Below are positions 43,715 to 62,874 of a stretch of 64,000 bases of DNA, piece after piece. The translations under genes and the position numbers were made by a program. Origin of the DNA: Oscillospiraceae bacterium (GTDB taxonomy: Bacteria; Bacillota; Clostridia; Oscillospirales; Ruminococcaceae); the NCBI GenBank assembly GCA_017460835.1, contig JAFUAD010000039.1, forward strand, positions 3,655-67,654. Reading direction: 5' to 3'. The notes under the pieces are model-generated. The model had not been told where the DNA came from, did no database searches, and saw only the letters and a program-made list of their open reading frames with translations. Within the stretch, counting starts at the first letter, position 1; every line of letters begins with the position of its first letter.

Positions 43715-43835
43715 ATGGAATCTGCCAAGTTTCTCTGCAAGAAGCTTTTGAATTTCAAGAACACAGTTATCACTGACTGCGAGTTCTATACGGATACCGA
43801 TAATATCAACCACATTCGCATTCAGGCACGTCCGA
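43715..43835 (+). mobile_element. ISL3-family transposase N-terminal fragment (about 40 codons)
   Basis: MESAKFLCKKLLNFKNTVITDCEFYTDTDNINHIRIQARPS resembles the ISL3 transposase N-terminus (LLxIKDxNIxITD...). The similarity is lost where the opposite-strand gene begins. Confidence 0.35.
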
Positions 43836-44827
43836 GTAAACGGTATCGAGCAAGGGCAGCGTGCCAGTCATCAATCCGATTACAGCACTATCTTCACTAT
43901 CCGGATACAGCCCCTTCACATGGTCAAATATCCGCTGCCACGATTCCGCAGGCTCCTCACTGTAAGCACTCGTCATAAGATCATACCCCCAGATCGTTTC
44001 CGGCGGGAACATTACAGAAACACTCATTCCGTATTCTGCGCCTTTCTTGTTTTTGCGTCGCTGAAAGTCTGTGATTACGAGATATAGCTGCATTTGCAGC
44101 CCAGTGATGATGCCGGGATAGTTTTTTAGTCCACCCTTGCCGAAACCGAATAATTTTTTCAGTTCTGTTGAGAGAATCACATCCTGATTCCAGAGTATAT
44201 CACCATCGCTATCTTCACTGATATACTTGCCTCTGTTGCAAAATATACGAATGTATATTTTGCAGGTTGCGAAGCAGCCAAAAGGTCGCTGTGCGACCTT
44301 TTACAGAGGCTGTATCACGGAGCGCTAGCGGCGCTGTGCGCCGCCCGCCGTCAAAGACGGCGGTTGCAAAATAGATATTTTGCAATAGCGCGTAGTATAT
44401 AATAATCCATGATGACCTTCTCTCGGTAAGTTGCTAGTCCGTCCTCATAGCGTGAATCAAAATCATAGCCGTTACGCCTATAATTTGCAAAGTACGGCAG
44501 CCACTTCTTGCTGATAAAGCCTGCCTTCTTGTCAAAGAACTTCCCGTATGCAACCTGATGACTTGCGGCGATGATCTCCCGCCACTCCCATGGATCCTGC
44601 TCCCTGTTACCAGTCCACCAGTAATTCGAGGAGACATGCTCTTCTGCCGAAAAGCCTGTGATGTCATTTGCGAACAGCGGCAGGAAGCCGATCTCGTTTA
44701 CCCAGCTTACAAGCTCCTGCCATGTGCGTATCCTATATGGATCATCCCAAGACAAGCCCCGCATGATCCACTCTCCGTTTTCTACTGCCATATAGTTCTG
44801 CCGCCATCCTCTCTTATCATTCTCCAC
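43806..44827 (-). pseudogene. AlkZ-related / winged-helix (HTH_42-like) protein gene split by a roughly 150-nt insert
   Basis: The N-part (44351-44827: WWTGNREQDPWEWREIIAASHQVAYGKFFDKKAGFISKKW) and C-part (43806-44230: LKKLFGFGKGGLKNYPGIITGLQMQLYLVITDFQRRKNKKG) read like one protein family (from memory). They are in different frames and are separated by a hairpin-rich block. Confidence 0.5.
44229..44385. repeat. Five-hairpin palindromic insert (MITE-like or structured-RNA element)
   Basis: Consecutive perfect stems: 44237-44264 (12 bp), 44280-44302 (10 bp), 44329-44343 (6 bp), 44345-44363 (8 bp), 44364-44385 (10 bp). Both ends carry TTGCAAAATA. Confidence 0.6.
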
Positions 44828-44886: not shown

Positions 44887-47688
44887 TTACACTAAATGAA
44901 TAGAGCCGATTCTCACTACCACCTCAAGCTGAAGTTTGCTCTTTGATCCGTTATCAAACTGAACTTCTATCACATGGATATCATCTCTTATGGTTTCAAG
45001 TCCGACAATAATCCCTTCGCCATAAGTAGCATGTTTTATCCGTGTGTTGACGGTATACGGCGCAAGGTCTGAATCAGCCTGAATGGGTTTCGTTTCCATT
45101 TTCGGTTCTTTAATTTGAACATCAGGATGACGGATGACCGGCTCTCTTGCTGTTCTGTCGGGTGGAGCAACCGAATTCACAAATTCAGATGCGCATTCGC
45201 TGACATAGAACAAATGCAGTTCGTTCTTTGCACGTGTGATCCCCACATAGAATAAGCGTCTCTCTTCCTCATAAGTATCGACACGCTCCTGCTCCGGTGC
45301 ATCTTCCCGGCACGAATGTGGGAGACATCCATCATAAACATCTACGATATAGACTGTATCAAATTCAAGCCCTTTGGCGGAATGAATAGTTGAGAGTATG
45401 ACAGGGTTCTCCTCTGTGCATTTGTAGCTCTCAATCAACTGCGGCAACTGCTCCAGTCGTGCAAGAAATCCTTTTATGGTCTCCTCATGAACGGCCAAGG
45501 CATATAGAATGTCCACCTTTCCTATGTCAAGTTCCTTTTCCTTGGCATAGGCATAGTACCAGAAACGGCAAATCAAGTCAATTGCATCATGTGGCTTTGA
45601 GGCTGCGATTTTCTTGAACTTATTCCGGAAATCCTCCGCTTTACGCATCAATGTTGGCCATTGAGACATCTGGTTTATCAGTTCATCGGCTATTGTGATT
45701 CGCTTCTGCGTAGCTTTTCTACAGCTCCAATATGCTGCATTCTTTTTGAATCCATATCCGCACTTATAATACACCTGATTAAATGCTTCGGCATCATTCA
45801 GATTGATAGCGAATCTCAGGAAATAAACAATGTCTTGAACGACCTTGCTTGTAAAAAAGTTCTCTCCAGCTTCTTTCAGACGAACAAATGGGATACTCTC
45901 ACGAAGGAACAAGTCCATCAAAGGAATAGCACTGCCGTTGTTGCGATAAAGTACTGCCATCTGACCGTGCTCTTTCTTGGATATCTCAGCAATTGCAGAA
46001 TACTGCTGATGCTTTTTTCTGACCGTTATTCTCTCAATCGGCTTTCCATCGCCTCGGCTGGCAACCATGTGCTTTTCAGAATGACGATTGATATTCTGGC
46101 TTATGAACCGTTGTGCTGCAGAGACGATGGGCTTAGTAGAGCGATAATTCGTCTCAAGAAACAGGATGTACGGGTTGGTATATGTGTCAGTGAAGTCAAG
46201 GAGCGCACGAGGGTAAGCCGCACGGAAGCGATAAATACTCTGGTCTTCGTCTCCAACCATGAAGATATTGTTATGCTTCGATGCAAGTATTCTTATGATT
46301 TCATGCTGAATTTTTGATGTGTCCTGCGCTTCATCCACACAGATATATTGATATTGAGCTTGAAACCATGCTAATACATCTGCGTAAATAATCAGGATAC
46401 TCCTTGCATAGATCAACTGGTCATCAAAATCCATGCGTTGTTGCGATTTGAGCGTGTTGACATATTTATTGAAGAACTCCTCATAGAAAGGCTCATCATG
46501 CAAATACTCAGCCCTCTGTTCAGCCGTTGTCATCATCATATTTTTGATGTAGCTGATAACTGTCTGAGCTGCAATTAAATCTGCTTCGTGCGGAAATTGG
46601 TCACCAGTAAGCGCAATGTAGATTGACTTAATGATGTTGGCTTGCTCATTCGCTTTCAGCATTGTAAATCGTGTACGCTGATGTATCTGAACATATTTAT
46701 TGATTACCTGTTCACACAGGGAATTGATAGTGCGAACGTTTAGACGTTTTGCTATCTCGGGATCGAATTTCTCTGCAAAACGCCGTTTGATGTCATTAGT
46801 CGCACTGACTGTATATGTGATCGCAAGGATATTCTCCGGAGCGATTTTCTTACAGTAGATCATGTAGCCCATTCTAGCAACCATGACTGTGGTCTTACCG
46901 CTGCCGGGGACAGCAATCATCAGATTAGCACCACTGACTGCCTGTACTGCACGCTGCTGCTGTGGGTTCAATCTGATTTTGTACTTTTCAGAAAACGTCC
47001 GGAATACCTCATCTATTTGCATATCCAGATGTAGCGGCAGAGGGCAAACACCATTAATCAGACCGACATACTCTAAAAATGCATCCTTCGTATACTTACA
47101 TTTGATAAGGAATCCATCGTTGGTAAAAGCCTGAATATGAAGGATGCATTCTCCCTCATCAGCAATCTGGAAAAACAAGTCGATTTCACCGGCACGCAGG
47201 TTATACTTCCGAAATGTTGAACGCGGCTTGCTCCATGCGAATTGGTTCACAGCTGATTCTGTGATTAATTCCTGCTCATAATCCTCTCGCATATCGTACA
47301 GCCATACAACCTTATACCCGATATTTCCATGATAGAACACGTTTCTGTCATTAAACTTTCCGGAAGAAAGCGGGCTGTGCTGAAACTCCACAACTGTTCT
47401 GTCAGTCAGAACATCTGCTCTGTGGCGTATATCATCGCACTGAACAACTACTTCCTGATTCTCAGGCGGAAACTGGTTCTGCCACCCGTAATGCCAGTCG
47501 GACATATCATACTGCCCGTTCCAGCTATCATTGCATTCGCAATTCGGATAATGAGAAAAATGACGTGCTCGTTCAGTACCTGACTTCACAAACATCTTTT
47601 CAAGACAAACAGGGCAGAAGAATGTATCGCCCTGAACCGCATCACTAATTGAAATGCGTTTTTGTTCTTTATCTAAGGCAATATACAT
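44887..47688 (-). CDS. CoiA-like nuclease domain fused to a UvrD/PcrA-type SF1 helicase with C-terminal Tudor-like tail, 933 aa
   Basis: N-terminus has FFCPVCLEKMFVKSGTERARHFSH...SDWHYGWQNQF...HRADVLTDRTVVEFQHSPLS...KVVWLYD (CoiA/PD-(D/E)xK-like). The helicase has AVPGSGKTT, VDEAQDT, VGDEDQSIYRFRAA, TNYRST, TIHSAKGLEFD, YVGITRAK. The C-terminus has HATYGEGIIVG. Confidence 0.85.
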   Translation of the reverse strand: MYIALDKEQKRISISDAVQGDTFFCPVCLEKMFVKSGTERARHFSHYPNCECNDSWNGQYDMSDWHYGWQNQFPPENQEVVVQCDDIRHRADVLTDRTVVEFQHSPLSSGKFNDRNVFYHGNIGYKVVWLYDMREDYEQELITESAVNQFAWSKPRSTFRKYNLRAGEIDLFFQIADEGECILHIQAFTNDGFLIKCKYTKDAFLEYVGLINGVCPLPLHLDMQIDEVFRTFSEKYKIRLNPQQQRAVQAVSGANLMIAVPGSGKTTVMVARMGYMIYCKKIAPENILAITYTVSATNDIKRRFAEKFDPEIAKRLNVRTINSLCEQVINKYVQIHQRTRFTMLKANEQANIIKSIYIALTGDQFPHEADLIAAQTVISYIKNMMMTTAEQRAEYLHDEPFYEEFFNKYVNTLKSQQRMDFDDQLIYARSILIIYADVLAWFQAQYQYICVDEAQDTSKIQHEIIRILASKHNNIFMVGDEDQSIYRFRAAYPRALLDFTDTYTNPYILFLETNYRSTKPIVSAAQRFISQNINRHSEKHMVASRGDGKPIERITVRKKHQQYSAIAEISKKEHGQMAVLYRNNGSAIPLMDLFLRESIPFVRLKEAGENFFTSKVVQDIVYFLRFAINLNDAEAFNQVYYKCGYGFKKNAAYWSCRKATQKRITIADELINQMSQWPTLMRKAEDFRNKFKKIAASKPHDAIDLICRFWYYAYAKEKELDIGKVDILYALAVHEETIKGFLARLEQLPQLIESYKCTEENPVILSTIHSAKGLEFDTVYIVDVYDGCLPHSCREDAPEQERVDTYEEERRLFYVGITRAKNELHLFYVSECASEFVNSVAPPDRTAREPVIRHPDVQIKEPKMETKPIQADSDLAPYTVNTRIKHATYGEGIIVGLETIRDDIHVIEVQFDNGSKSKLQLEVVVRIGSIHLV

Positions 47689-47713: not shown

Positions 47714-48574
47714 TTATTTATGCTTATTACGATAATCCTGCACCATCTCGCGTGTAATCGGATATGGATCACCAAGCATCCACTTGCAATCGTAAAATTT
47801 CCAAATTCTCTCCAATTCCTCTTCCGAATCGATTCCAAGCTGATACATCTTTACCTGAACCAAAGTCAATTCATACCATTTGCAATCATAGTGCAGACAC
47901 AAGGCATCTAATTCATCTCCGCTTTCAATACCAAGTTCCATCATATATATATCTATTTCATCAGGTGCATTTCTGTCTTCCTGTTCACACATAATAGCCA
48001 TTTCAAAGCACTTCTGAAGAAGATAGCCAAACGGAATCGACAGTTTTTCAGACAACTCGGAAATAAGGCAGCAGGTAGAAGTATCAAATCCAAGTTCATC
48101 CGTAGCGTGGATAAAGTCCTCAAAATAGCGCCAGTCCGATGAGCTCATATATTTTTGGGAGTCCATCTTATCGAATATTGCGTCGAGTCTGCTGCTTGAT
48201 GCAAGGAGGCTATCCAGCACTTCACGATTGTCCGGGATTTCCGGCTTTTCTCTTCGCAGTTCCGAGGGAGTTTTCCCATACTCTTTGGTCACAGCCCTCG
48301 TAAAAGCCGACTGATCAGAATACCCGTATTCCAGCGCAATCTCAGCCAGCGGCTTCTCAGGATGGTTGATCAGGTCACCTACAGCAAAGAAGAGCTTACG
48401 CTTTCGGATGTAGTCACGCAGCGTGAATGCTCCAGACGAGACAACAGCAAGATATTTGTTGTAATCCTGGTCGCAGTAACCGGTCTCGGCGTAAACCTTC
48501 CTTACGATCTCGCTGTGCTTGAGGCGGATGTCCCGATCAATGATAGTTAACGCAGTGTCAAGAACTTTACTCAT
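47714..48574 (-). CDS. AraC-type HTH protein with an unknown repeat-containing C-terminal domain, 286 aa
   Basis: IALEYGYSDQSAFTRAVTKEYGKTPSELR is an AraC HTH. The C-terminal half carries two copies of LGI(E/D)S..EL(D/E)....(Y)DCKW. Confidence 0.7.
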   Translation of the reverse strand: MSKVLDTALTIIDRDIRLKHSEIVRKVYAETGYCDQDYNKYLAVVSSGAFTLRDYIRKRKLFFAVGDLINHPEKPLAEIALEYGYSDQSAFTRAVTKEYGKTPSELRREKPEIPDNREVLDSLLASSSRLDAIFDKMDSQKYMSSSDWRYFEDFIHATDELGFDTSTCCLISELSEKLSIPFGYLLQKCFEMAIMCEQEDRNAPDEIDIYMMELGIESGDELDALCLHYDCKWYELTLVQVKMYQLGIDSEEELERIWKFYDCKWMLGDPYPITREMVQDYRNKHK

Positions 48575-48677: not shown

Positions 48678-48986
48678 TCACACTCCCAGATGCTTCTCAA
48701 AAATCCTCATAATCTCCTCGGCACGTTTTTCTCCGATACCCCTGATGGCTTTTATATCTTTCTCAATCTCTCGAAGATCCAAAATCTTGCTGTCATCAGT
48801 ACCATCAACATCTTCATCAACGATCACCCCTGCCTCAGCCAGACCTTTCTTCCGTCCGCGTTCAAAGATATCGTTTAATAGCCCTTCGAGCGTGACTCTA
48901 TCCATGCGCTTAACTGCCTTGTAGAGGTTTCGGTCGAGGAGAGGGGCTGTGTCCTCTGTGGTCGTATTCATATCGTCTGTGGACAT
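48678..48986 (-). CDS. Small acidic protein with helix-hairpin-helix-like motif, 102 aa
   Basis: IRGIGEKRAEEIMRIF resembles an HhH motif. No other recognisable features. Confidence 0.5.
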   Translation of the reverse strand: MSTDDMNTTTEDTAPLLDRNLYKAVKRMDRVTLEGLLNDIFERGRKKGLAEAGVIVDEDVDGTDDSKILDLREIEKDIKAIRGIGEKRAEEIMRIFEKHLGV

Positions 48987-49080: not shown

Positions 49081-49311
49081 TTAGGATAAAGCCATCTGCT
49101 TAATCGCCCTCTCCACACTATCAATAAGCATCGGTCTCCGCATCTCACCGACCATCTTATCAAAATCGTCTCCGCTCGGTTCACCGTACATGAGATTATC
49201 GCCATCGGTGGTGCGGAGCCATGAGAGAGCCTTCTCCAGAGACTCAGGAGAATTCGTATCAAAGCTTTTAGATTGTAGGAATGCTAAGTTTGCATCGTGT
49301 TGTGTGGGCAT
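49081..49311 (-). CDS. Hypothetical protein, 76 aa
   Basis: ORF in the same orientation as its neighbours, with AAAGGAG upstream (revcomp of ctccttt at 49321-49327). No motif. Confidence 0.45.
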   Translation of the reverse strand: MPTQHDANLAFLQSKSFDTNSPESLEKALSWLRTTDGDNLMYGEPSGDDFDKMVGEMRRPMLIDSVERAIKQMALS

Positions 49312-49340: not shown

Positions 49341-49706
49341 TTACGTCTTATTCCCGCTCTCCATAAATCCCGGCTTATCATTAGCAATTGCGTCTATTAG
49401 CAGTTCTAATCTGTATTGTAGGCGGTCGCCGATTGTGGTTATCAACGGAATGCCGGGACTATGCAGCCTTTCATAATAACGTCCGTCCTTCAGATCGGCT
49501 ATCTCGTTATTAATGCCGTTCAGTTCAAAGCAGTACTTTACCTTGATATCCTCCGGCAGTGAGGACAGCAGTTGTTCAAAGTAATGTGTACACTCGGATA
49601 GCGGCGGCGATGATTCCGTTGGCTCATTATAGTATTCAAGGGATTCTTTGACGTTGCCTTTCGCAAGCAGAGCAGCGATTTTCATGAGAGCTTCAAAGGT
49701 GTTCAT
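49341..49706 (-). CDS. Hypothetical protein, 121 aa (last gene of the RM operon)
   Basis: Starts 9 nt after the res stop. No recognisable motif. Confidence 0.55.
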   Translation of the reverse strand: MNTFEALMKIAALLAKGNVKESLEYYNEPTESSPPLSECTHYFEQLLSSLPEDIKVKYCFELNGINNEIADLKDGRYYERLHSPGIPLITTIGDRLQYRLELLIDAIANDKPGFMESGNKT

Positions 49707-49715
49707 TATCGCGCC

Positions 49716-51944
49716 TCACTTCAGCACGCTTTCAAGCGGCTGCCAGTTATCGCCGACCATTGAATCGGTATACTCCGTATTACAAATAAATAGATCACCA
49801 TCATTATCTCGTACAAAGCCCCACTTTACACCATATCTTTTAGCATAGTCCTTGAATGCCTCAAACTTGTTCTCGACCTGCATATCAATATTCTTTGAAT
49901 AGCCGGCACTCATTCCGCCCTTTGTTTCGATGATCCAAACCTCGCCGTTTGTGAGCTTCACAATGTAGTCGGGATAGAACAGCCACTGCTTGCCGGAGAA
50001 ACCATCCAGATATACAACAGAGAAATACTGCTGTCCGGCATCACCGTTCTTGTATACCCATTCGACCGCATCGCATCTCTCGCAGAATTTCTCAAAGAGG
50101 CGTTCCGAATCGCTTTTTCGAGTTTCACTGGTAATAAATTCCGTAGTATAGCCTGCATAGACGTTTTTCGTCATCGGCTTGATTTGCTTGACAAAGCTGA
50201 ATTTATACAGCTCCGATTCAGGAATTGTGAACGTTGCAGTTTTTGCCTGCCCGGACATAGCGAGTTGGAGCTGCTTGCCGCTTTCCTTCGCCATGATCTC
50301 GCGGAATTCTTGCTTGAGCATTTTGATATTGTTGATGATGAATGCATAGAAATCGCTTGTATTCAATGCAATTAGTTTGAACTTTGTCTTTTTCCCTTTT
50401 AGGAAAAGTCGGTTCAGAATCTTTCTGGCTCTCTGCGCCGGAATGGATGTGATTGTCTTGATATCCTCAACAGCGCGCATGAGGTAGATACCATGTGTAT
50501 GAGTGTTGATTTTCGTCTTGATCTCTACCTTTTTCGATGAGCCGGCATTCGCCAGATCGGATGCGGTTCTGAATTCACCGCGGAGAACCTGACTGTCAAT
50601 CTCGTGTGAGAAGCTGTATCCCGCTGATTCGAGAGCGAGCTGGTTATCTGTTGTCCTGGAACCGAGGTGATACTTCTCCTTGAAATGCTCATATACCTTG
50701 CGCATCATCTCACGTTCACCGATATCACTATCAACATCGTGGTTACGCATTTCTTTGGTAAGGGAGAAATCCCGCACTTCCGGTTTCAGGAACAGCTTTC
50801 TGACCTGATATGCTTTATCGAGTGCAGTCAACAGGTCGTTCTTGTACTCGGTGTCAAGGGTATAGATGAAACATAGATCGAGAACGCCGGGAAAAAGATA
50901 GTGCTTACGCTCCGGCATACGGCGGATTCTGCCGATGGTCTGGATCTGGAAACGCTCACTGCCGCCCTCACGCAGCTTGACGAGAATCTTGGCGCGGGGG
51001 CAGTCCCAGCCGGTAGCAACCGCTTGCTTCATGAGCAGGAACGCAGGCGCACCGTTGGGTGCGGTGAGGTCTTCACTGATAACCTTCTGATCGCTCATCC
51101 AGATGTTGACCATGCCGTTATCGTAGGTGTAGCCCATTGATGCGAGTTTATCCTCAACAGCCTTGATGGTTTCAGGCTGCCCCACAGGGAACTGAATCAG
51201 CACCAGCGGACGGATATCGACATCGATAGAGTCATATGCTCCGAGTATCTCCTGACGCTTCATATCCGCTAATTTGAGTAGAATGTCATAATCATCGGAA
51301 ATACGCTCCGAGTCCTCCACGCCCTCATTGACATAGATAGCCCGTGTGATAAGCCCTGCATCGATGACCTCTTCCTCCGGAATTTCGTAGAATTCCTGAT
51401 GCGGCACCTTGATTGGCGTAGCGGATACACGGATGATATGCACGGGCTTGAACGCCTCGATTATGTCATTAGCTTTTGAGGTGTTGTTCTCATGCTCTTC
51501 ATCAATGATGACAATGAAGCGGATTCCGTCGTTGTGCGCTTCTTCGATCTTCTCAAAGAGGTTCTTTCTTTCGCCGTCCTTGAGGGCATTATTCTTCTTG
51601 CGGGTGACAAGCTCCCAGTTGATGAAGGTGACGCTCCTGCCCTCGAAACCGCAGAGCATGGAGTACGGGAGCGAACGGGTGTCGATGTGCGGTGCAAGCG
51701 AGTCCATGCGATCCTTGCTCTGCTCCTCCAGATTGCCCTTTCCGGGGCAGAGCCAGACGAACGCAGTCTTGCCGTCTGTGTTCTTCAGATATGCATCAAC
51801 ATACTTCACCAGAATGACGGTTTTGCCTGCTCCGGTCGGTGCTTTGACCGTAACGATCTGCTTTGTTCCGGAGGCGGTTGTTTTATTGTAAAGGAAATCG
51901 ACACAGTTTTCCTGAAATTCGTAGTTTTCGATGCCGTTTACCAT
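49716..51944 (-). CDS. res: Type III restriction enzyme Res subunit (SF2 helicase + PD-(D/E)xK endonuclease), 742 aa
   Basis: APTGAGKT (motif I), IIDEEHEN (motif II), VSATP (motif III), and the C-terminal YPDYIV...WIIETKGG nuclease motif. Overlaps the mod stop by 7 nt. Confidence 0.88.
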   Translation of the reverse strand: MVNGIENYEFQENCVDFLYNKTTASGTKQIVTVKAPTGAGKTVILVKYVDAYLKNTDGKTAFVWLCPGKGNLEEQSKDRMDSLAPHIDTRSLPYSMLCGFEGRSVTFINWELVTRKKNNALKDGERKNLFEKIEEAHNDGIRFIVIIDEEHENNTSKANDIIEAFKPVHIIRVSATPIKVPHQEFYEIPEEEVIDAGLITRAIYVNEGVEDSERISDDYDILLKLADMKRQEILGAYDSIDVDIRPLVLIQFPVGQPETIKAVEDKLASMGYTYDNGMVNIWMSDQKVISEDLTAPNGAPAFLLMKQAVATGWDCPRAKILVKLREGGSERFQIQTIGRIRRMPERKHYLFPGVLDLCFIYTLDTEYKNDLLTALDKAYQVRKLFLKPEVRDFSLTKEMRNHDVDSDIGEREMMRKVYEHFKEKYHLGSRTTDNQLALESAGYSFSHEIDSQVLRGEFRTASDLANAGSSKKVEIKTKINTHTHGIYLMRAVEDIKTITSIPAQRARKILNRLFLKGKKTKFKLIALNTSDFYAFIINNIKMLKQEFREIMAKESGKQLQLAMSGQAKTATFTIPESELYKFSFVKQIKPMTKNVYAGYTTEFITSETRKSDSERLFEKFCERCDAVEWVYKNGDAGQQYFSVVYLDGFSGKQWLFYPDYIVKLTNGEVWIIETKGGMSAGYSKNIDMQVENKFEAFKDYAKRYGVKWGFVRDNDGDLFICNTEYTDSMVGDNWQPLESVLK

Positions 51945-53569
51945 ATCTCGCCCGCCTCCCTCAGTTCAAAATCAAAGTAGTAATCCGGAATGATGTAGGA
52001 GTCGATCTTTTCAAGCAGCGCCTCCTGCGAAGAAGAGAGGAACACATCCTGATTGATGAACACTGCACAGAGATCGGGGTAGTTCCCGATATTCTGCTCG
52101 AAAGCATCCATCTCCTCATCGGTCATGATGATGACATACTTCTGGTCATCGATCTTGACACCATGCTCAAGCTGTATCATTTCACGGATATGTTCTAAGA
52201 GGTTTTCGGACAGTTCCTCCGACTCTTTCTCTACAAAATCCGTGCGGAAGTACATGAGGTTTGCAGGGATGCCTTCAGAGTATTCGCTGCCATCCTGACG
52301 CTTTCCGGTGATGACGGTTTTTATGCGCTGATAGGTTACTCCCTCGCAAATATTGTTTTCGTTATTTGTGCAGAGGATGAACTTGCGCTTTCCGCCGTCT
52401 TCGGCATTTTGAGCTAATACTGCATGAGCCGTTGTACCTGAACCCGCAAAGAAGTCAAGAACGATAGAGTTAGGATTTGACGCTATATGTATAATACGCT
52501 TTATCAATTCTGTAGGCTTTGGAGTGTCAAACGGTGCCTTACCGCCAAATATATCCTTCAGTTCAGCCGTCGCTTGACGAGTAGTTCCTGCCACACCTCC
52601 AACCCAAATGTTTTCTGGAACCTTTCCATCTAAGTCAGAGAGGTAGAGTTTGTGTATGATATTCGTTTGATCAGCATTAAAGATTATTTCACCAGAATCT
52701 ATTTTTGATTGCATAGTTTCTTTACTCCATCTCCAACCTTTTTCTGGAGGAGCAATGATATTTCCGTTAGGCGCAATGACTTCATATACCAAATTTGGTC
52801 TGTACAATCCGTTTACACAATATCCAGCTCTCCACGGTCCTCTCGGATCATTGTCTGGATTTCTATACATCTTATTGTCTTTATCAGTCCTCGGTAGATT
52901 TTTCAAAATGAACTGTGGTTTTGCGTATACTAAAGTATGATTAAACTGAGAAACAAATTTTCCACCATATCCATTTGCTTGTAAACTATGTTGCCATATA
53001 ACATCAGCTAAAAAGCAAGACTCACCAAACAATTCATCACAAAGCAATTTAAGATTAGCCTGTTCTCTATCATCTATACTGATGAAAATAGCACCTGCAT
53101 TACTAAGAAGTTTCCATGCCATTTGCAGACGGCTTCTCATAAAGGAAATCCACTTGCTATGTTTATAAGTATCATCATCGCCAATCATTGTATCATCATA
53201 AATGAATTCCTTGTTCCCTGTATTGTAAGGCGGATCAATATAAATTAAATCGATTCTACCAGAATGTGTTTTTTCAAGCAGGCGTAGGGAGTGCAGGTTG
53301 TCACCCTCAAGCAGGAAGTTATACTGCTCACTATTGGGATCACCGTTGATCTCCATGCTCTCATCTGCCGTGAACACAGGGATATGTGTCCGCATCATTA
53401 CATCGACAGCTTCCTCGTGCTCTTCCCACACAAGACCATATTTCTTTGCCTTCAGCTCCTTTTCAATCTCGCCGAGCGCAATCAGGGAATCATCGTCCGT
53501 GTGTTGCGATTTCAGCATTTCGAGAAAGGCGAGCATCCTCTCTCGCTTCTGTTGTGACAGGTTTGCCAT
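51938..53569 (-). CDS. mod: Type III (beta-class) N6/N4 DNA methyltransferase Mod subunit, 543 aa
   Basis: IYIDPPYNTG (motif IV) precedes VLDFFAGSGTTAHAV (motif I), the beta-class order typical of Type III Mod. Confidence 0.88.
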   Translation of the reverse strand: MANLSQQKRERMLAFLEMLKSQHTDDDSLIALGEIEKELKAKKYGLVWEEHEEAVDVMMRTHIPVFTADESMEINGDPNSEQYNFLLEGDNLHSLRLLEKTHSGRIDLIYIDPPYNTGNKEFIYDDTMIGDDDTYKHSKWISFMRSRLQMAWKLLSNAGAIFISIDDREQANLKLLCDELFGESCFLADVIWQHSLQANGYGGKFVSQFNHTLVYAKPQFILKNLPRTDKDNKMYRNPDNDPRGPWRAGYCVNGLYRPNLVYEVIAPNGNIIAPPEKGWRWSKETMQSKIDSGEIIFNADQTNIIHKLYLSDLDGKVPENIWVGGVAGTTRQATAELKDIFGGKAPFDTPKPTELIKRIIHIASNPNSIVLDFFAGSGTTAHAVLAQNAEDGGKRKFILCTNNENNICEGVTYQRIKTVITGKRQDGSEYSEGIPANLMYFRTDFVEKESEELSENLLEHIREMIQLEHGVKIDDQKYVIIMTDEEMDAFEQNIGNYPDLCAVFINQDVFLSSSQEALLEKIDSYIIPDYYFDFELREAGEIW

Positions 53570-53579
53570 GTGTGTCCTC

Positions 53580-54482
53580 CTATTTATCTATTCTTCTTGC
53601 GTCTTTTATGAGTTGAAGTTGCTCTTCAGTGATTGGATAACGAGAATATATCCACTCTTTAGCGCATTGAGCTATACTCCACTGAACCTCTCGTATAAAT
53701 TCATCGGGTAAATCCATAAGAACATTGCGTTTTCTGCGTGTTTCTTCACTGTTTGGTATCATGTACAACACCATAGTTGGTGAGAGCGGAAAGATGACTT
53801 TTTCTGGTCGATCCATACTAAAATCAATCGTATCCCGTTCACTATGGAAAAGGAAAATCGGCCGGTCCGCTGTGAAGAAAACAGGTTCTTTGGAACGCCC
53901 AATAATAAACGCCATATCCTCAAACCAGTTTGCAATCCGCCAGAAGATGCTGTTTCTCTCAACATCAAACTTCCCATCAATAAAAGCATCTAAGCAGTTC
54001 CATACAGCAACATTTCTAGCCTCATTTGCTTTTAATTGATCGGGAAACATTTCATTGAGTAGGTCTTCGGCACTGGATAATACAAATGGATATCGTAAGA
54101 TTTGCAATGTCATAAATGCCATTAATAGTGCTTTTTCTTTGGAGGATAGAAAGCATCTCGTGTGAAGATTCTTATCATTCTCGGCATTCCTCAATACTTG
54201 ACCGATAGTGTTTGAAAACTCTATTTCATAACGAGACAGAGTATTTTCTACGCTGTTCCTATAAATGAAGTTGCTTTCTTCATCCTTAAATTCGTAAAGG
54301 TGTTTCTCAAAGCAGATACTTTCAATACGAATTTGATCAGGAAGCTGCTTCATTTCAGTCAGATTATATGCCCATATTAGGTCTTTAAACTTTCCTTTAT
54401 TTAGCTTTCTCTCAGAAAAGCGACGCAGATGCATTCTTGGTACAAAGTGTTCATCTGTTGTTGGTTTTTTATCATTGGCCAT
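53580..54482 (-). CDS. DUF4238-family protein, 300 aa
   Basis: The N-terminal EHFVPRMHLRRFS matches the H(Y/F)VP..(Y/H)L..F signature I associate with DUF4238. There are 10-nt gaps to both neighbouring genes. Confidence 0.75.
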   Translation of the reverse strand: MANDKKPTTDEHFVPRMHLRRFSERKLNKGKFKDLIWAYNLTEMKQLPDQIRIESICFEKHLYEFKDEESNFIYRNSVENTLSRYEIEFSNTIGQVLRNAENDKNLHTRCFLSSKEKALLMAFMTLQILRYPFVLSSAEDLLNEMFPDQLKANEARNVAVWNCLDAFIDGKFDVERNSIFWRIANWFEDMAFIIGRSKEPVFFTADRPIFLFHSERDTIDFSMDRPEKVIFPLSPTMVLYMIPNSEETRRKRNVLMDLPDEFIREVQWSIAQCAKEWIYSRYPITEEQLQLIKDARRIDK

Positions 54483-54492
54483 ATAGTCACCA

Positions 54493-57192
54493 TTAAGTGT
54501 ATTTTCGTTGTTCCGTCTTACTCAAGCACAAGTGTCCGAGCCGACACTTGGAGCAGTTCTCCTTGCTGCACCGCCTCGGCAGATTGTTCCGCCGGATGCT
54601 GTCAGCCGCCTGTTTGATTTCCGTTTCTACGCCTGCTATCGTTGCATCCGTGACCGGCTCTCTGGCGGTATTCTCGGAATCGAGATGATAGATCTCCATG
54701 AAGTCTGCCGTTGCACCTGTCAGCCGCTGATAGCCGAGCGCATATATTTTGAGCTGCTGGCTGTTGATCGCCTCCAGCACCCGCTTGTTTGCTGTTTTGA
54801 AGTCAACGATCACCGTTTTCGGCTGACCATCAATGCTTTCCTCACGCACCATGTCGATGCGTCCATTCACGGTAACGCCGTCACCGAGATCAATCTCGAT
54901 CTGCGACTCGGCAAGGCGTATCTCGCTGAATCGGTCTGCATTATGCTCAACATACTTCTTGATGCTGCGCTTTGCACTTTCAAGCATTCTCTCAAACTGT
55001 ACCTGCTTTGCATACGGCAGATAGAACACCTGATCGAACGTCTGCTTGATGAAGTCATCCGTGATCGGCGTGCCGTTGATCGCTGCAAGATTGATGTTCC
55101 GCACAATATCATGTAGCGCATTACCGTATCCCATCAGCTCCGAGAACGGCTGCTGAAAGCCGTAGAACATGGACAGCTTGAAACGATAGGGGCATTCAAA
55201 GTAGTCCTGCAGGAGCGAGAAGTTCAGCGTGAGGGGCATCTTGCTTTGCCGCAGCTCCGGCAGATGCTTCGGATCATAGACGGCCGATCTGTCATACGGA
55301 AGCATACACGGCGAGCCCTGCGCCTCTACGAAAAATGTCGAGATGGTTTTATCGCGGGTATCTTTCGCCCTGGATATGAACAGATACTTCTTCGCTCTGG
55401 TGACGGCAACATAGAACAGCTTGCGCTCGTCCTCCAAATCGCCATCAAAGCGGCTCGACCCCGTGATCCAGTTGCGCTGAATAACGTGCCACACGCCCTT
55501 GCCACCGACACGCTGCGCCGGAAAGTAGTTCTTATTCAGTCCGGGGATGAACACCGCCGCATACTCCAGACCTTTCGACTGGTGAACAGTCATGATGGAA
55601 ACAGCATCCGGCTTTGTATAGGAATTGTCAAGATAGCCCTCCGGATAATAATCCCCGGCGGTATATTTCAGGAACGCACAGAAGCCGTATATTTTCGATT
55701 TCGGCTTCAGCGTGAAATTGATGACCTCATAGTCACCGATGACCTGACTGAATTTGCCGAGGTTATAGAGGATGATCTCCGTTTCCGGTCTGCCGTCCTC
55801 CACAAGCGATATACCCTTTAGAAAATCATGGTATATCTGCTGAAGATTCAGTTCTGTGTAAAACTTCATCTTTGCAACATCGGTCGTCATGAGCAGTTGC
55901 AGGCTGTCAGCGACTTCTTTCTTGTTGAAGGGGTAGTCTACGGCAAGCCAGCGCTTGAACAGCTCCGTTGAGTCAATATCACCATTCAGATACTCAAAGA
56001 TGCCCTTTGCCGCTTTGCATTCCGGCGTAAAAAGCAGTTCATTGACACCTTCTATAATAAAAGGAATGTCATGCTCGGAGAGTGTTTCGGCAATGTCGGG
56101 ACCAATCTTCCGCTTGCGGAGAAGGATTGCCATTTCCGAATACGGCACGCCGATGTCATGCAGCTTTACGATATTTTCTGCAATGAATTCGTATTCATCT
56201 TCCGACAGCATGGTTTCCTTGAAAACAATATCGCCGTCATCATATACAGTGCTGCAGCCGGAATCCATTTTCTTTGGAAGGCGATGGGAGTTGTTCAGGA
56301 TGACATTTTGAGCAACACTGACAATGCCTTTTGTGCTGCGATAGTCCGTATCCAGTACAATATATTTCTGGATGTTGTACCGCTGCATGAACGTCAGAAT
56401 ATTATTGGAATCGCTGCCGCGAAATTGATAAATCGTCTGATCGTCATCACCCACCACGCAGATATTTGCACCGAGGTCTTTGAGCAGACGCACGAGCTTC
56501 TCCTGCACTGGATTGGTATCCTGATACTCGTCCACAGTGAGGTATTTTACCTTTTCAGCAATGATACCTTGAAAAACGAGGTTGCTTTCAAGCTGTTGCA
56601 CCATTTCACGCAGAATCAGCGAGTAGTCAAAATACTTCTCGGCATACAGCTTTTTCTTATATTTCTCAAATGCAGTCTGAACTTCCTTACTCCATTTATC
56701 AGAGTCGTACCAGTTTTCATTGAGCATACTCATGACACGCACGAACAGATCCGTTTCGATATATTTTTGCAGTTCCAGATCCGTCATGCCGATCTCTTCA
56801 TAGTATCGCTCAACGAACAGTTTTGTATGTATTTCATCCAAAACGGAGAATGACTGAAATTCCGGCAGAAATTCCTGCAGCATTTGCAGGCAGAAGCCGT
56901 GGATCGTGCCAATATACATATTTGCAAAGCCTTGCGTATTTCCCAGAACAGCTTGTCCCATAGAATAGATACGGCTTTTCAGCTCCTCGGCGGCTTTCTT
57001 TGTGAATGTGAAAGCTACGATGTTTTCTGGATGTACTTCGGGCTTGCTTTTCAGGATGTTAATGATGCGGCGTGTTACAACACCGGTCTTTCCCGCACCA
57101 GCGCACGCTATGATTTCGACATCTTCATCGATAGCGTTTACGGCTTCAATTTGCTTATCAGATAGCTTATGAGTCAGGATATTGTCTTGCAT
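54493..57192 (-). CDS. UvrD-type SF1 helicase fused to a C-terminal Cas4/AddB-like Fe-S PD-(D/E)xK nuclease, 899 aa
   Basis: Helicase has ACAGAGKTG, VDEYQDT, VGDDDQTIYQFRGS, TDYRST, TVHQSKGLEY, YVAVTRAK. Nuclease has FECPYRFK...GRIDMV...VDFKT...QLKIYALGY and the terminal C-x2-C-x5-C (CSKCRLGHLC). Confidence 0.88.
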   Translation of the reverse strand: MQDNILTHKLSDKQIEAVNAIDEDVEIIACAGAGKTGVVTRRIINILKSKPEVHPENIVAFTFTKKAAEELKSRIYSMGQAVLGNTQGFANMYIGTIHGFCLQMLQEFLPEFQSFSVLDEIHTKLFVERYYEEIGMTDLELQKYIETDLFVRVMSMLNENWYDSDKWSKEVQTAFEKYKKKLYAEKYFDYSLILREMVQQLESNLVFQGIIAEKVKYLTVDEYQDTNPVQEKLVRLLKDLGANICVVGDDDQTIYQFRGSDSNNILTFMQRYNIQKYIVLDTDYRSTKGIVSVAQNVILNNSHRLPKKMDSGCSTVYDDGDIVFKETMLSEDEYEFIAENIVKLHDIGVPYSEMAILLRKRKIGPDIAETLSEHDIPFIIEGVNELLFTPECKAAKGIFEYLNGDIDSTELFKRWLAVDYPFNKKEVADSLQLLMTTDVAKMKFYTELNLQQIYHDFLKGISLVEDGRPETEIILYNLGKFSQVIGDYEVINFTLKPKSKIYGFCAFLKYTAGDYYPEGYLDNSYTKPDAVSIMTVHQSKGLEYAAVFIPGLNKNYFPAQRVGGKGVWHVIQRNWITGSSRFDGDLEDERKLFYVAVTRAKKYLFISRAKDTRDKTISTFFVEAQGSPCMLPYDRSAVYDPKHLPELRQSKMPLTLNFSLLQDYFECPYRFKLSMFYGFQQPFSELMGYGNALHDIVRNINLAAINGTPITDDFIKQTFDQVFYLPYAKQVQFERMLESAKRSIKKYVEHNADRFSEIRLAESQIEIDLGDGVTVNGRIDMVREESIDGQPKTVIVDFKTANKRVLEAINSQQLKIYALGYQRLTGATADFMEIYHLDSENTAREPVTDATIAGVETEIKQAADSIRRNNLPRRCSKENCSKCRLGHLCLSKTEQRKYT

Positions 57193-57335
57193 AGCGGCCT
57201 CCTTTGCGTATAATTATACATCTTCCATTATACCACAATCCCCCTCAATTTTCAATCCCCGTACAGCACTTTTTCAATAGAAATTCCGCCGACAATATCG
57301 CAGAAGCGCTCCCACAAAATTTTTTTCCGTACCCC

Positions 57336-57364
57336 TTGACAAACCTTTCCTCCTGTGCTATAAT
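57336..57364 (+). promoter_or_regulatory. Consensus sigma-A promoter for the XRE-WYL regulatory operon
   Basis: TTGACA - 17 nt - TATAAT with a TGc extended -10. It shares the 13-mer TGTGCTATAATA with the promoter at 59618-59646. Confidence 0.65.
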
Positions 57365-57428: not shown

Positions 57429-58169
57429 ATGGAAAACAAAAATCTATCTGATGATAGCATCGATCTCAGTGGCTTCAGTACAGTTCACCTTGACTGCGCT
57501 AATAGTGTGTTGCAAGAGAGGCGGCTTGTTTTGGAGCTGACGCAGAAGCAAATTGCTGAAAGAGCTGGAATCCCGTTATCTACATACAAAAAATTTGAGT
57601 CCGGTGAGCGAAATATCCGCACAGCAGCATTTGAAGTGACTTGCCGTGTGCTGAATGCTTTGGAACTTGATATTGAAGGCTTCTACCACGGAATCTATGC
57701 TATCGGCGAGGAGGTATATATTGACGAGGAGGGGCAGAAGTATGTCCGCACAGGTAGACTGACCTCCGAGGAGATTGATGATGACGAGGCAATCAATGTC
57801 GTGCGTGTACATATAGTTGATCGTTCTCTTATCATTCCGCTGAAGCTGCTCCGAATCATCAATAACCCGGATAAGATTCATCTGATGTATCACAAGGACG
57901 ACAGGCGTTTTGGTATCCGTGTGTTAAAGGAGTCCACTGACGGCGCTATCTATATCCCGCAGGAAGTTTACAGCGGAAAATGGCGCGGCATTCGTATTGA
58001 GAACGATGTGTTCATTGACCTTATCTATTCTATTATACAGAGAGACACAGGGAGATACTTTGTAGAGCCGCACTTTAATGAATACGGATTTATCGTGCAT
58101 TTAGATGAAACCGTGAAATCTGACTATAAGACGAAGCCAGATAAGTATTATCTGCTTAATCTGGAGTAA
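57429..58169 (+). CDS. XRE-family HTH protein with an unknown C-terminal domain, 246 aa
   Basis: LELTQKQIAERAGIPLSTYKKFESGERNIR is a Cro/C1-type HTH. GGAGG RBS is present. Divergent from the defence operon. Confidence 0.8.
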   Translation: MENKNLSDDSIDLSGFSTVHLDCANSVLQERRLVLELTQKQIAERAGIPLSTYKKFESGERNIRTAAFEVTCRVLNALELDIEGFYHGIYAIGEEVYIDEEGQKYVRTGRLTSEEIDDDEAINVVRVHIVDRSLIIPLKLLRIINNPDKIHLMYHKDDRRFGIRVLKESTDGAIYIPQEVYSGKWRGIRIENDVFIDLIYSIIQRDTGRYFVEPHFNEYGFIVHLDETVKSDYKTKPDKYYLLNLE

Positions 58170-58185: not shown

Positions 58186-58467
58186 ATGAGAAGCGATAAG
58201 AAAGCGTATGTCAGCCCACATAATCCTGATGTTATGGTGCTTCCGGCTGATCCGAAAGCAGTTCAGGAAGCGCATGAACAGGATGCAAGCCGAATGTCAG
58301 TGAAAAGCGAACTGCTCGACCTATACCGCAAATTGAGCGCAGCACGCATTAAACTCGAAGAGGACGACCGCATTATCGATCTTATTTTGCAGCAGCGGAA
58401 CCAGATCGCAGCCGAGATTGCAGATATGGAACAGCGTGTTCAGGAGCTGGAGGAAAGGAAGATATAA
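58186..58467 (+). CDS. Small coiled-coil hypothetical protein, 93 aa
   Basis: ORF between the XRE and WYL genes with short gaps (16 and 4 nt). The C-terminal half is heptad-like. Confidence 0.5.
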   Translation: MRSDKKAYVSPHNPDVMVLPADPKAVQEAHEQDASRMSVKSELLDLYRKLSAARIKLEEDDRIIDLILQQRNQIAAEIADMEQRVQELEERKI

Positions 58468-58471
58468 CACA

Positions 58472-59482
58472 ATGCCTGAAAACACAACACTCACAATCAA
58501 AGGCCGCCTGCTCTTTTTGGAGCATTACTTGCAGACCTATACGGACGATCAGCATTCTGTCTCGACTGATGAGCTTATCGAAATCTACACAGCTAACGGT
58601 TTCAAGGCGAACCGCAACACGATCCGTGATGATATGGCGATCCTGTCCTCCTCCGGCGTAGATGTCATTCAGTCCTACAAGGGCAAACAGCGTGCTTACC
58701 ATATCGGCAATCGACTCTTCGATCTTGCCGAAGTAAAGACACTGGTCGATGCGGTGTGTAGTTCGCACTTTATAGCGGCCAAGAAAAGCGAGGAGCTGAT
58801 AGAGAAGCTCACACAGCTCACAAGTATCCATTACAGAGACACGCTTGCTCACAGTGCTTTTGCCGCCGGGCGCATCAAGGTCGAGACACCCAATATCTTC
58901 ATAACCATCGACAAGATCAACGATGCCATAAGCAGCGGGAAGAAGATCAGCTTTCAGTATATTGACTATAAGCCGGATAAGACCGAGGTGCTGCGGCATG
59001 ACGGCAAGAAATACATCGTTTCCCCGCAGACGTTCCTTTGGAACGATGACAGATACTATGTGCCGTCCTATTCTGAAGAGAAGGGCTGTATTATTCCGTT
59101 CCGTGTGGACAGAATGCGGAATGTGGAGATATTGGAAGCAGAGCGTTTCGTTGACAGTTCCTTCGATTCCTCCGAATACACCCGCAAGGTTCTGAAGATG
59201 TATGACGGTGATCTGCCGGAGCAGGAAGTGACGCTGATAGTCGACAACAAGCATATGCTGAGTATCATTGACCGCTTCGGCGAGGACATCGAGACTGAAG
59301 TATTGGATGACGAGCATTTCAAGGCTGTGGTCACAGTATGCCCAAGCGTCACCTTCTTTGCGTGGGTGTTCCAGTTCGCTGGAAGTATTCGGATCGCGGG
59401 GCCGGAAGATGTGAAGGAAAAGTACAAGGAACTGCTCACACAGATTCTGACGGAGCAGGAAGAGACTGCCATGAGTGAATAA
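58472..59482 (+). CDS. HTH + WYL-domain transcriptional regulator, 336 aa
   Basis: N-terminal wHTH (STDELIEIYTANGFKANRNTIRDDMAIL), WYL core (YIVSPQTFLWNDDRYYVPSYS...IPFRVDRM) and a C-terminal WCX-like segment. Start at ATG 58472. Confidence 0.8.
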   Translation: MPENTTLTIKGRLLFLEHYLQTYTDDQHSVSTDELIEIYTANGFKANRNTIRDDMAILSSSGVDVIQSYKGKQRAYHIGNRLFDLAEVKTLVDAVCSSHFIAAKKSEELIEKLTQLTSIHYRDTLAHSAFAAGRIKVETPNIFITIDKINDAISSGKKISFQYIDYKPDKTEVLRHDGKKYIVSPQTFLWNDDRYYVPSYSEEKGCIIPFRVDRMRNVEILEAERFVDSSFDSSEYTRKVLKMYDGDLPEQEVTLIVDNKHMLSIIDRFGEDIETEVLDDEHFKAVVTVCPSVTFFAWVFQFAGSIRIAGPEDVKEKYKELLTQILTEQEETAMSE

Positions 59483-59646: not shown

Positions 59647-59816
59647 AGATTTAAGGGTACAGTCTGTTACCTAAAATCAAGGAATTTCGCCGAAAACACG
59701 TTGTTGAGGTTCTCAAAACTGTCCCTGCAAGGTCGCTCTGGCGGGCGATTTTGTCTCCGGACGGTAGGAAAAAGAGACCTACAGGACTCCGCAGCATGAT
59801 GAAAGGGTGTTATAGT

Positions 59817-60443
59817 ATGGCAATGCGGCAAGCTACGAAGGACAAGTTGGAACGGATGAAGGAATTCATCGACAACTATGCCTTAGAGAATATGGGACAG
59901 CCGCCAAGCACCAGAGAGATCGGTGCCGAATTCGGCATGGCAAATGTCAGTGCCTATCGCTTTCTGCAAAAGATGGCGGAGCTTGGCATGATCGAATATG
60001 AGAACGGTGAGATCCGCACGGATGTGATCGATAGAATCACATGCAGGATGGAGATGCTGGGCACGTTAGATTCTGAAGTACCTGCCGGTACTCCGGATAT
60101 GGTCGATGATGCACACGTTGAGAGGTATTTTCCGATACCATCGGCGCTTGTCAACGACATGACCGGTAAATTCTATATGATGAAAGTCAAGGGTGAATCG
60201 ATGGTTGATGCAGGCATCGATGACGGAGATTATGTCATTTTCCGTGAGGATAATCTGCCGCATGTGAACGATATCGTTGTTGCGTTTGTTATGAATGAAG
60301 GCAATACGCTGAAACGCTTTTGCAAGGATAAGCGTGGTCCGTATCTGTGGGCTGAGAATGAAAGCTGGACAAGAAAAGAACGTTACTTCGGTCGAAAGTT
60401 CAAGGTTATGGGCATTGTTCTCAAGATTATTAAGGATGCGTAA
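59817..60443 (+). CDS. LexA/CI-like repressor with S24 autopeptidase domain, 208 aa
   Basis: N-terminal wHTH (STREIGAEFGMANVSAYRFLQKMAELGMIE). S24 Ser-Lys dyad context (VKGESMVDAGIDDGDYVIF ... GNTLKRF). Alternative start at ATG 59796. Confidence 0.8.
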   Translation: MAMRQATKDKLERMKEFIDNYALENMGQPPSTREIGAEFGMANVSAYRFLQKMAELGMIEYENGEIRTDVIDRITCRMEMLGTLDSEVPAGTPDMVDDAHVERYFPIPSALVNDMTGKFYMMKVKGESMVDAGIDDGDYVIFREDNLPHVNDIVVAFVMNEGNTLKRFCKDKRGPYLWAENESWTRKERYFGRKFKVMGIVLKIIKDA

Positions 60444-62845: not shown

Positions 62846-62874
62846 CTACAACTGATAATTTGAAAGGAAGGTAC

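Follow-up and report, generated by a model that had tools for sequence, protein, structure and literature searches.

Fusions of a UvrD-type helicase with a Cas4-like nuclease (UvrD-Cas4) were described in a comparative survey, in which their commonest neighbourhood was the mod and res genes of a Type III system of restriction and modification (R-M), often with WYL/HTH regulators and Schlafen-like proteins, and their second context was Dcm/Vsr (Hudaiberdiev et al. 2017, BMC Evol Biol, PMC5704561). A third, helicase-type gene has also been reported 5' of mod-res and "intimately associated" with it, its product being an ATPase without a nuclease motif in systems of the N4-methylcytosine (m4C) type (Murray et al. 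2021, PMC8259958), and a DUF4238 protein encoded in a P2 prophage hotspot gives E. coli stand-alone protection against T7 (Rousset et al. 2022, PMC9122126). Here we describe five minus-strand genes at 49341-57192 of the window, by which we mean the whole 64,000 nucleotide (nt) stretch of DNA analysed (Oscillospiraceae bacterium, assembly GCA_017460835.1, contig JAFUAD010000039.1, positions 3,655 to 67,654). They encode a UvrD-Cas4 protein, a DUF4238 protein, Mod, Res and a 121 amino acid protein. We propose, with fair confidence, that they represent a nested defence operon on a prophage-like element, in which a Type III R-M system with a UvrD-Cas4 accessory carries an independent DUF4238 cassette and has the 121 amino acid gene as a neighbour. 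The anatomy of the locus, its intact catalytic motifs, the co-inheritance of UvrD-Cas4 with Mod and Res, and the cassette nature of the DUF4238 gene are evident in the comparisons made.

The window resembles the loci of the 2017 survey in its superfamily 1 UvrD motor joined to a PF12705 Cas4-like nuclease with conserved cysteines, and in its Mod and Res neighbours. HTH and WYL genes are also present in the window, and in four relatives (L013-L016; homologous loci are referred to by such numbers) Res is followed by AlbA_2/Schlafen, FRG-domain and 806 amino acid dCMP-deaminase-domain proteins, flanked by IS66 elements. The survey was purely comparative and names no insert between the fusion and Mod, whereas here a DUF4238 gene lies at that point and, in the relative L026, a Thoeris system. 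The position of a helicase-type gene 5' of mod-res is shared with the m4C-type loci, but the protein here combines UvrD with a Cas4-type nuclease and the Mod is of the DPPY type. The original prediction held that the composite arrangement was undescribed, and this needs narrowing: the three-gene core of UvrD-Cas4, Mod and Res was already known, computationally only (PMC5704561), and DUF4238 was already a known defence gene (PMC9122126). In the searchable literature we found no experimental study of UvrD-Cas4 with Type III Mod/Res, and met the term "UvrD-Cas4" in no paper other than that survey. What appears to be new, as judged from the same literature, is the cassette slot at the UvrD-Cas4/Mod junction, holding DUF4238 or Thoeris, and the presence of a DUF4238 subfamily within operons of Type I as well as Type III.

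Operon layout and the Type III core

The five open reading frames (ORFs) follow one another on the minus strand in the order UvrD-Cas4 (54493..57192, 899 amino acids), DUF4238 (53580..54482, 300 amino acids), mod (51938..53569, 543 amino acids), res (49716..51944, 742 amino acids) and the 121 amino acid gene (49341..49706), with a gap of 10 nt, a second gap of 10 nt, an overlap of 7 nt and a gap of 9 nt between them and a GGAGG-type ribosome-binding site at every junction. These coordinates, spacings and domains are those of the original prediction, and the ORF list and searches of Pfam, PADLOC and NCBIfam bore them out. The promoter region that it placed at 57.2-57.4 kb contains a near-consensus, sigma-70-type promoter on the minus strand (57255..57227; TTGAAA-17-TATAAT with a TG extension, 11/12 positions), approximately 35 nt upstream of the UvrD-Cas4 ATG, and a divergent consensus promoter on the plus strand (57336..57364, 12/12 positions). 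Separate promoters or terminators between the genes, which had been raised as a sign that the array might not be a unit, did not emerge: a consensus scan found no minus-strand terminator-like sites within 49341-57192, and the internal promoter-like matches were weak (9/12), their total number not exceeding that in shuffled sequence. With one strong promoter and no internal terminator-like site among these consensus matches, the five genes are probably co-transcribed from about 57.24 kb, as had been suggested. The intergenic inverted repeats were weak, and we found no convincing operator among them. The co-directional array runs past the 121 amino acid ORF, through 76 and 102 amino acid ORFs and AraC and CoiA-UvrD genes, to 44887.

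Mod matched PF01555 (N6_N4_Mtase) with 132 bits and the PADLOC model MTase_III (PDLC03642) with 480 bits over residues 1-542, and its IDPPYNTG (DPPY) motif lies ahead of FFAGSGTT (FAGSGTT), as in beta-class, Type III Mod proteins. Res carries ResIII and DEAD domains (Pfam), the superfamily 2 (SF2) motifs APTGAGKT (GAGKT), DEEH and QTIGRIRR, and a C-terminal P658-D659...E673-x-K675 (PD...ETK), all of them invariant. Its PADLOC match to REase_III was weak (52 bits), and at 742 amino acids it is shorter than the matched REase_III and NCBIfam Res models (809-989 positions). Since the helicase motifs and the invariant C-terminal PD...ETK motif are present, we regard it as a complete, if compact, Type III Res; as an SF2 ATPase with a PD-(D/E)XK nuclease it directly follows mod, the mod stop and res start forming the 7 nt overlap. 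The Res family is large, with >7000 matches of approximately 735-745 amino acids, and none of the PDB sequences matched the window protein. Mod and Res are thereby predicted to form a complete Type III R-M system. PADLOC (version 2.0.0), one of the checks proposed for this locus, recovered the methylase strongly and the restriction subunit weakly, and contained no model detecting DUF4238.

The central target-recognition domain of Mod (approximately 52470-53021) is swapped between relatives. The Mod proteins of the window and L025 share 5-50% identity in the central block and 90-100% at the ends, and those of L002 and L006 are 66% identical although UvrD-Cas4 and Res are 100% identical between these two loci. 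The exchange of the central block between operons whose UvrD-Cas4 and Res are 98-100% identical implies that Mod specificity may be switched frequently by recombination. Phase variation of mod was considered and rejected because the gene contains no simple repeats. In one relative an insertion sequence (IS) element with a DDE_Tnp_1 transposase (L013:5887-7257) lies inside mod and divides it into pieces of 358 and 159 amino acids, with UvrD-Cas4 and Res intact.

DNA homology between the window and its DUF4238-bearing relatives begins at 49718, immediately beyond the Res stop, and ends at 57238-57275, shortly after the promoter, which falls inside this common block. All four genes (UvrD-Cas4, DUF4238, mod and res) are under purifying selection, with ratios of nonsynonymous to synonymous substitution (dN/dS) of 0.05-0.13. 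We propose that the conserved mobile unit, from 49716 to about 57255, would consist of the promoter, UvrD-Cas4, a cassette slot, Mod and Res. Mod would label the DNA of the host by methylating adenine within a short asymmetric site, while Res, with its SF2 ATPase and PD-ExK nuclease, would make double-strand cuts in unmodified incoming DNA; Type III systems are characterised by hemimethylation of such a site and by cleavage that depends on ATP and on two unmodified sites in inverse orientation. E. coli RecBCD degrades DNA after restriction, and UvrD-Cas4 would most likely act as a system-encoded analogue of AddAB/RecBCD, loading on the double-strand ends made by Res and unwinding and degrading the DNA, so that a single Type III cut would become irreversible. 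The DUF4238 gene would have been inserted once at the UvrD-Cas4/Mod junction and be expressed by read-through, its product acting in parallel as an independent, single-gene anti-phage module that widens the range of phages blocked, while the 121 amino acid gene would merely be the next gene of the host element.

The DUF4238 gene and the slot it occupies

The 300 amino acid protein matched PF14022 over residues 11-281 with 99.7 bits (cut-off 27, E=2.6e-28); it is a PF14022-domain protein as is Rst_DUF4238, a single-gene system of DefenseFinder, and the same domain was found in all homologues of the window protein. A word-indexed search returned only 13 of these. The close homologues (76-99% identity; L002-6, L197-8, L025 and L279) all lie between UvrD-Cas4 and Mod; the flanking contexts of these loci are of three different kinds, and one viral contig from IMG/VR is among them. 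In its Type III setting the gene was found only in the window and in L025, L001-6, L197-8 and L279, and it is missing from most UvrD-Cas4/Mod/Res operons. When the window was compared with two relatives that lack the gene, homology broke at 53580/53587 and restarted at 54508 (L023) and 54665 (L017). The break points with L023 indicate an insertion of approximately 0.9 kb (about 53588-54507) consisting of the DUF4238 gene and its ribosome-binding site only, and since the UvrD-Cas4 identities make the window and L002 nearest relatives, one insertion event suffices to account for the pattern. The gene has been under purifying selection since its insertion (dN/dS 0.10 at dS of about 1.3).

In a metagenome-assembled genome of an uncultured Clostridia (L026:5139-8366, contig CAMDZD010000015.1), the slot is occupied by a complete Thoeris system instead. 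Its genes, for two TIR proteins (ThsB) and a ThsA with SIR2 and STALD domains, lie exactly between a 5'-truncated stump of UvrD-Cas4 and the usual Mod start; Mod and Res are intact in this locus. Because DUF4238 is missing from most of the operons and Thoeris occupies the same slot in L026, the arrangement appears to be one of modular nesting rather than a fixed composite machine, and the DUF4238 gene looks to be a cassette nested at the UvrD-Cas4/Mod junction in one sub-lineage only. It is in this sense that DUF4238 is not welded onto the R-M system, as had been thought.

In tblastn searches of plasmids and phages the DUF4238 protein gave only two weak plasmid matches of approximately 25% identity and no phage match. 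The only significant fold match of its AlphaFold2 model (pLDDT, the predicted local distance difference test score, of 77), found in BFVD, was to an uncharacterised protein of Stenotrophomonas phage Smp131, which we take to be P2-like. This fold match and the single PF14022 domain are its points of likeness to Rst_DUF4238 (PMC9122126). The two differ in setting, the gene described here lying inside an R-M operon (Type III, or Type I in its relatives) and the other free-standing in the P2 hotspot, and identity between the window protein and annotated DUF4238 proteins of proteobacteria is low, about 25%, the demonstrated activity being that of a distant, E. coli P2-hotspot member. Given this stand-alone anti-phage family member (PMC9122126), DUF4238 could plausibly provide the second line of defence that had been suggested for the additional genes.

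The distant relatives of the window DUF4238, at 35-39% identity, are encoded within Type I operons, in the interval from hsdS to hsdR, on elements that are conjugative or mobilisable, and their start codons abut or overlap (L007-L012, L103 and L106-L108); two further relatives were on contigs too short for their context to be judged. Several genes are embedded between hsdM and hsdR in these Type I operons, namely DUF4238, a DUF1016/YhcG nuclease and a 272 amino acid uncharacterised protein, and their order varies.

Five points weigh against the nested operon as we have proposed it. The DUF4238 subfamily occurs in R-M operons in every lineage that could be read, once in Type III and in three protein clusters in Type I, which hints at more than random nesting. 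In L001 both UvrD-Cas4 and DUF4238 are retained, while only the first 112 residues of Mod are left and Res has gone; therefore, UvrD-Cas4 and DUF4238 may work without R-M, or together. Nothing in the PDB resembled DUF4238, whether by Foldseek (no match below E=1) or by a profile search of PDB sequences. The co-inheritance of UvrD-Cas4, Mod and Res, described below, could reflect co-mobilisation alone, and promoters and terminators were called from matches to consensus only. The Type III genes of L001 have been replaced (L001:10881-16680) by a Type II, 5-methylcytosine (m5C) cluster of HTH-Dcm, Vsr, Z1 and NgoFVII-type genes, suggesting that the Dcm/Vsr context of UvrD-Cas4 can arise by replacement of Type III genes.

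One alternative links two ideas: the UvrD-Cas4/mod junction would be a dedicated landing slot, drawing autonomous defence cassettes (DUF4238, Thoeris) into a Type III operon, and the R-M-embedded DUF4238 subfamily of Type I and Type III operons would be a new class of second-line effector, coupled to R-M and released when restriction fails, with UvrD-Cas4 as a system-encoded "finisher" of restricted DNA, which it would degrade. We give this combination a small chance. It also seems unlikely that DUF4238 acts as a PrrC-like guardian of R-M, silenced by the R-M complex and toxic or abortive once a phage anti-restriction protein disables the system. That a guardian gene can be embedded in an R-M locus is known from PrrC (PMC12707154); PrrC/EcoprrI and RloC are, like DUF4238 here, accessory defence genes inside a co-transcribed R-M operon, and both the position of the window gene within its Type III operon and the abutting or overlapping genes of the Type I relatives would suit such a role. 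However, the P2-hotspot DUF4238 needs no partner R-M system to protect E. coli (PMC9122126), the slot in L026 holds an unrelated and autonomous Thoeris, and L001 has kept its DUF4238 without a functional R-M system. Assignment of DUF4238 to the PrrC type was rejected. In PrrC an ABC-ATPase is joined to an anticodon nuclease, whereas neither an ABC-type ATPase nor an anticodon nuclease domain was found in DUF4238 with Pfam, NCBIfam and PADLOC, and Pfam and PADLOC revealed no similarity to PrrC or RloC; the embedded position alone is in common.

The UvrD-Cas4 protein and its co-inheritance with Mod and Res

The 899 amino acid protein contains the Pfam domains UvrD-helicase (PF00580, 192 bits), UvrD_C (PF13361, 140 bits), PDDEXK_1 (PF12705, 72 bits) and Cas_Cas4 (PF01930, 28 bits). 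Its SF1A motor has the Walker A motif AGAGKT and the motif DEYQD; its C-terminal RecB/Cas4-type PD-(D/E)XK nuclease has H694, D780, K799 and QxxxY (Q813, Y817), and C667 together with a C-terminal CX2CX5C (C880, C883, C889) makes up a four-cysteine Fe-S signature. In an alignment of 20 family members, down to 31% identity, G32, G34, K35, D221-D225 and each of the nuclease and cysteine positions just named were invariant. Since the helicase motifs, the nuclease residues and the four cysteines are all invariant, the protein is predicted to combine a UvrD motor with an Fe-S nuclease of the Cas4/AddB type, and it agrees with the fusion family of the 2017 survey in its domains, catalytic residues, cysteines and Mod/Res neighbourhood.

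With the end-processing enzymes AddAB, RecBCD and AdnAB, UvrD-Cas4 shares a UvrD-like SF1A motor joined to a RecB-family nuclease, and Fe-S cysteines of the AddB/Cas4 type. It differs from these in that it is a single polypeptide, lacks a partner subunit and belongs to a mobile defence operon. A housekeeping identity was rejected from the NCBIfam scores, which in bits against cut-off were 279/911 for pcrA, 234/1144 for uvrD, 132/708 for addA and 132/696 for recB. Gabija was rejected because no GajA was found among the nine neighbouring proteins scanned with PADLOC; the GajB matches of UvrD-Cas4 correspond to the generic UvrD core. GajB is a UvrD-like helicase paired with GajA (an OLD-family ATPase-TOPRIM nuclease), and UvrD-Cas4 also carries its own nuclease domain.

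At 65-75% Res identity the context was always UvrD-PDDEXK, then Mod, then Res, without DUF4238. Fourteen loci lacking DUF4238 (L013-18, L020-21, L023, L024, L027, L028, L031 and L109) have UvrD-Cas4 directly upstream of Mod-Res, with 58-78% UvrD-Cas4 identity. A genome scan with one genome per species and BLAST annotation gave 80 loci, 49 of which had at least 3 kb upstream of Mod; UvrD-Cas4 was present in seven of the 49, one of the seven being a remnant. Among the loci with measured Res identity it was present in 6/7 at Res identities of at least 64% and in 0/40 below 64%, a split indicating that UvrD-Cas4 is a clade-specific accessory that the Res family does not require. Within the UvrD-Cas4-bearing clade the identity matrices of UvrD-Cas4 and Res are correlated (r=0.80, Mantel p approximately 2e-4), and the UvrD-Cas4 stop is followed by GGAGG and the Mod start ATGGCAAAYTTATCACAG, always within 17 nt or overlapping.

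More divergent fusions were also found, one (L111, 41% identity) followed by an N6_N4 methylase and another (L171, 27% identity) followed by a methylase and a 921 amino acid ResIII/RE_endonuc protein. A metagenome scan with the UvrD-Cas4 alignment returned mostly generic UvrD motifs; of the 80 loci only about 12 proved to be true fusions, and the contexts at 24-30% identity were mixed and uninformative. On viral contigs the best Res relatives were 53% identical, and no full-length UvrD-Cas4 gene and no DUF4238 gene was found near any of them; the only match was a weak, partial one to the UvrD family, several kb from Res in L253. As judged from these comparisons, and from L026 with its intact Mod-Res beside a mere stump, UvrD-Cas4 appears to be a long-term, co-inherited yet dispensable accessory of a Type III clade.

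It is improbable that UvrD-Cas4 serves the host instead, by repairing or resecting self-inflicted Type III breaks or through general ancillary repair. An ancillary role like that of the RecB/AddB nuclease domains, partly redundant with RecB, was proposed by Hudaiberdiev et al. (PMC5704561), and among solved structures in the PDB its nearest relatives are two repair helicases, PcrA and UvrD, together with AddA and AdnB subunits; but the gene is the first of a mobile defence operon, it occurs only with a sub-clade of R-M systems, and its product falls far under the pcrA, uvrD and addA cut-offs. We consider it more improbable still that UvrD-Cas4 and DUF4238 constitute a two-gene defence system of their own that happens to lie beside Type III genes. 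While L001 has kept exactly this pair, its Mod cut short and its Res replaced by the Type II m5C system, no UvrD-family gene adjoins the DUF4238 relatives of Type I operons, UvrD-Cas4 is found with Mod-Res but without DUF4238 in many lineages, and it co-diverges with Res.

The 121 amino acid gene and the surrounding element

The 121 amino acid protein belongs to no family in Pfam, PADLOC or NCBIfam and has homologues down to 61% identity. In L189-L193 the homologue follows a 270 amino acid gene and precedes a homologue of the window's 102 amino acid ORF (48678-48986, minus strand; phrog_19490), in a setting of phage-like cargo with no R-M system. In R-M-bearing relatives other genes, of 178 or 155 amino acids, follow Res (L002-6, L197), and DNA homology to all relatives ends just past the Res stop (49718), leaving the 121 amino acid gene outside the common block. 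From the R-M-free contexts of its homologues and the other genes found after Res, we assign it to the host element and not to the R-M system; it is a real, conserved gene of the backbone or cargo of the mobile element. The original prediction that all five genes form one unit is not supported, since homologues of the fifth reside in R-M-free mobile elements; the order UvrD-Cas4/DUF4238/Mod/Res does recur in other genomes, in at least three flanking contexts. That the five genes form one integrated machine, in which UvrD-Cas4, DUF4238 and the 121 amino acid protein each modulate or extend Type III restriction, would fit their spacing (10 nt or less, or overlapping) and single promoter but is highly improbable, being already contradicted for the 121 amino acid gene by its position and contexts and further opposed by the different genes after Res and by the many UvrD-Cas4/Mod/Res operons that lack DUF4238.

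Downstream of the R-M unit, the 76 amino acid ORF (49081-49311, minus strand) and the 102 amino acid ORF are also part of the mobile-element backbone. An AraC-type regulator (47714-48574, minus strand) precedes a gene (44887-47688, minus strand) encoding a second nuclease-helicase fusion, a 933 amino acid protein with CoiA_N, CoiA nuclease-like and UvrD domains, which is co-directional with the operon and is possibly another defence gene. L020 and L022 likewise encode CoiA_N proteins, at a distance of a few kb from their R-M unit, as do L189-190. Further along, a gene related to the AlkZ family of DNA glycosylases is split into two parts (43806-44180 and 44351-44827, minus strand) matching profile positions 1-110 and 117-216, and is probably a pseudogene.

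On the other side of the operon, an XRE-type HTH gene (57429-58169, plus strand), which is a possible regulator, and a divergent gene for a WYL/WCX-domain regulator (58418..59482, plus strand) were considered as members of the conserved unit and rejected, as they are not conserved beside it in relatives and homology ends at 57255-57275. Beyond them lie genes for a LexA-like S24 peptidase repressor (59751-60443, plus strand) and a sigma-70 region 4 protein (62860-63636, plus strand). The latter is 29% identical over 231 residues to a sigma protein of L189, the gene for which adjoins a module of DUF2800, single-stranded DNA-binding protein and DNA polymerase A, a hint that the window runs into a prophage-like element at its right end. 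The G+C content falls from approximately 0.57 to approximately 0.47 at about 28000, and the low-GC part holds MetE, AdhE, Fe-hydrogenases and SpoIIE. This drop was rejected as an island boundary, given the MetE, AdhE and hydrogenase genes in the low-GC part, and no tRNA genes were found.

The nested operon that we favour would mean that defence systems stack inside one transcription unit, beyond their mere side-by-side placement in islands, and that a Type III operon with a conserved and widespread UvrD-Cas4 partner offers a defined slot for autonomous defence modules. It would also explain why PADLOC-like tools would call such a locus "Type III R-M" only. The four genes from UvrD-Cas4 to Res may thus provide a tractable model for what UvrD-Cas4 adds to Type III restriction and for whether DUF4238 proteins cooperate with R-M.

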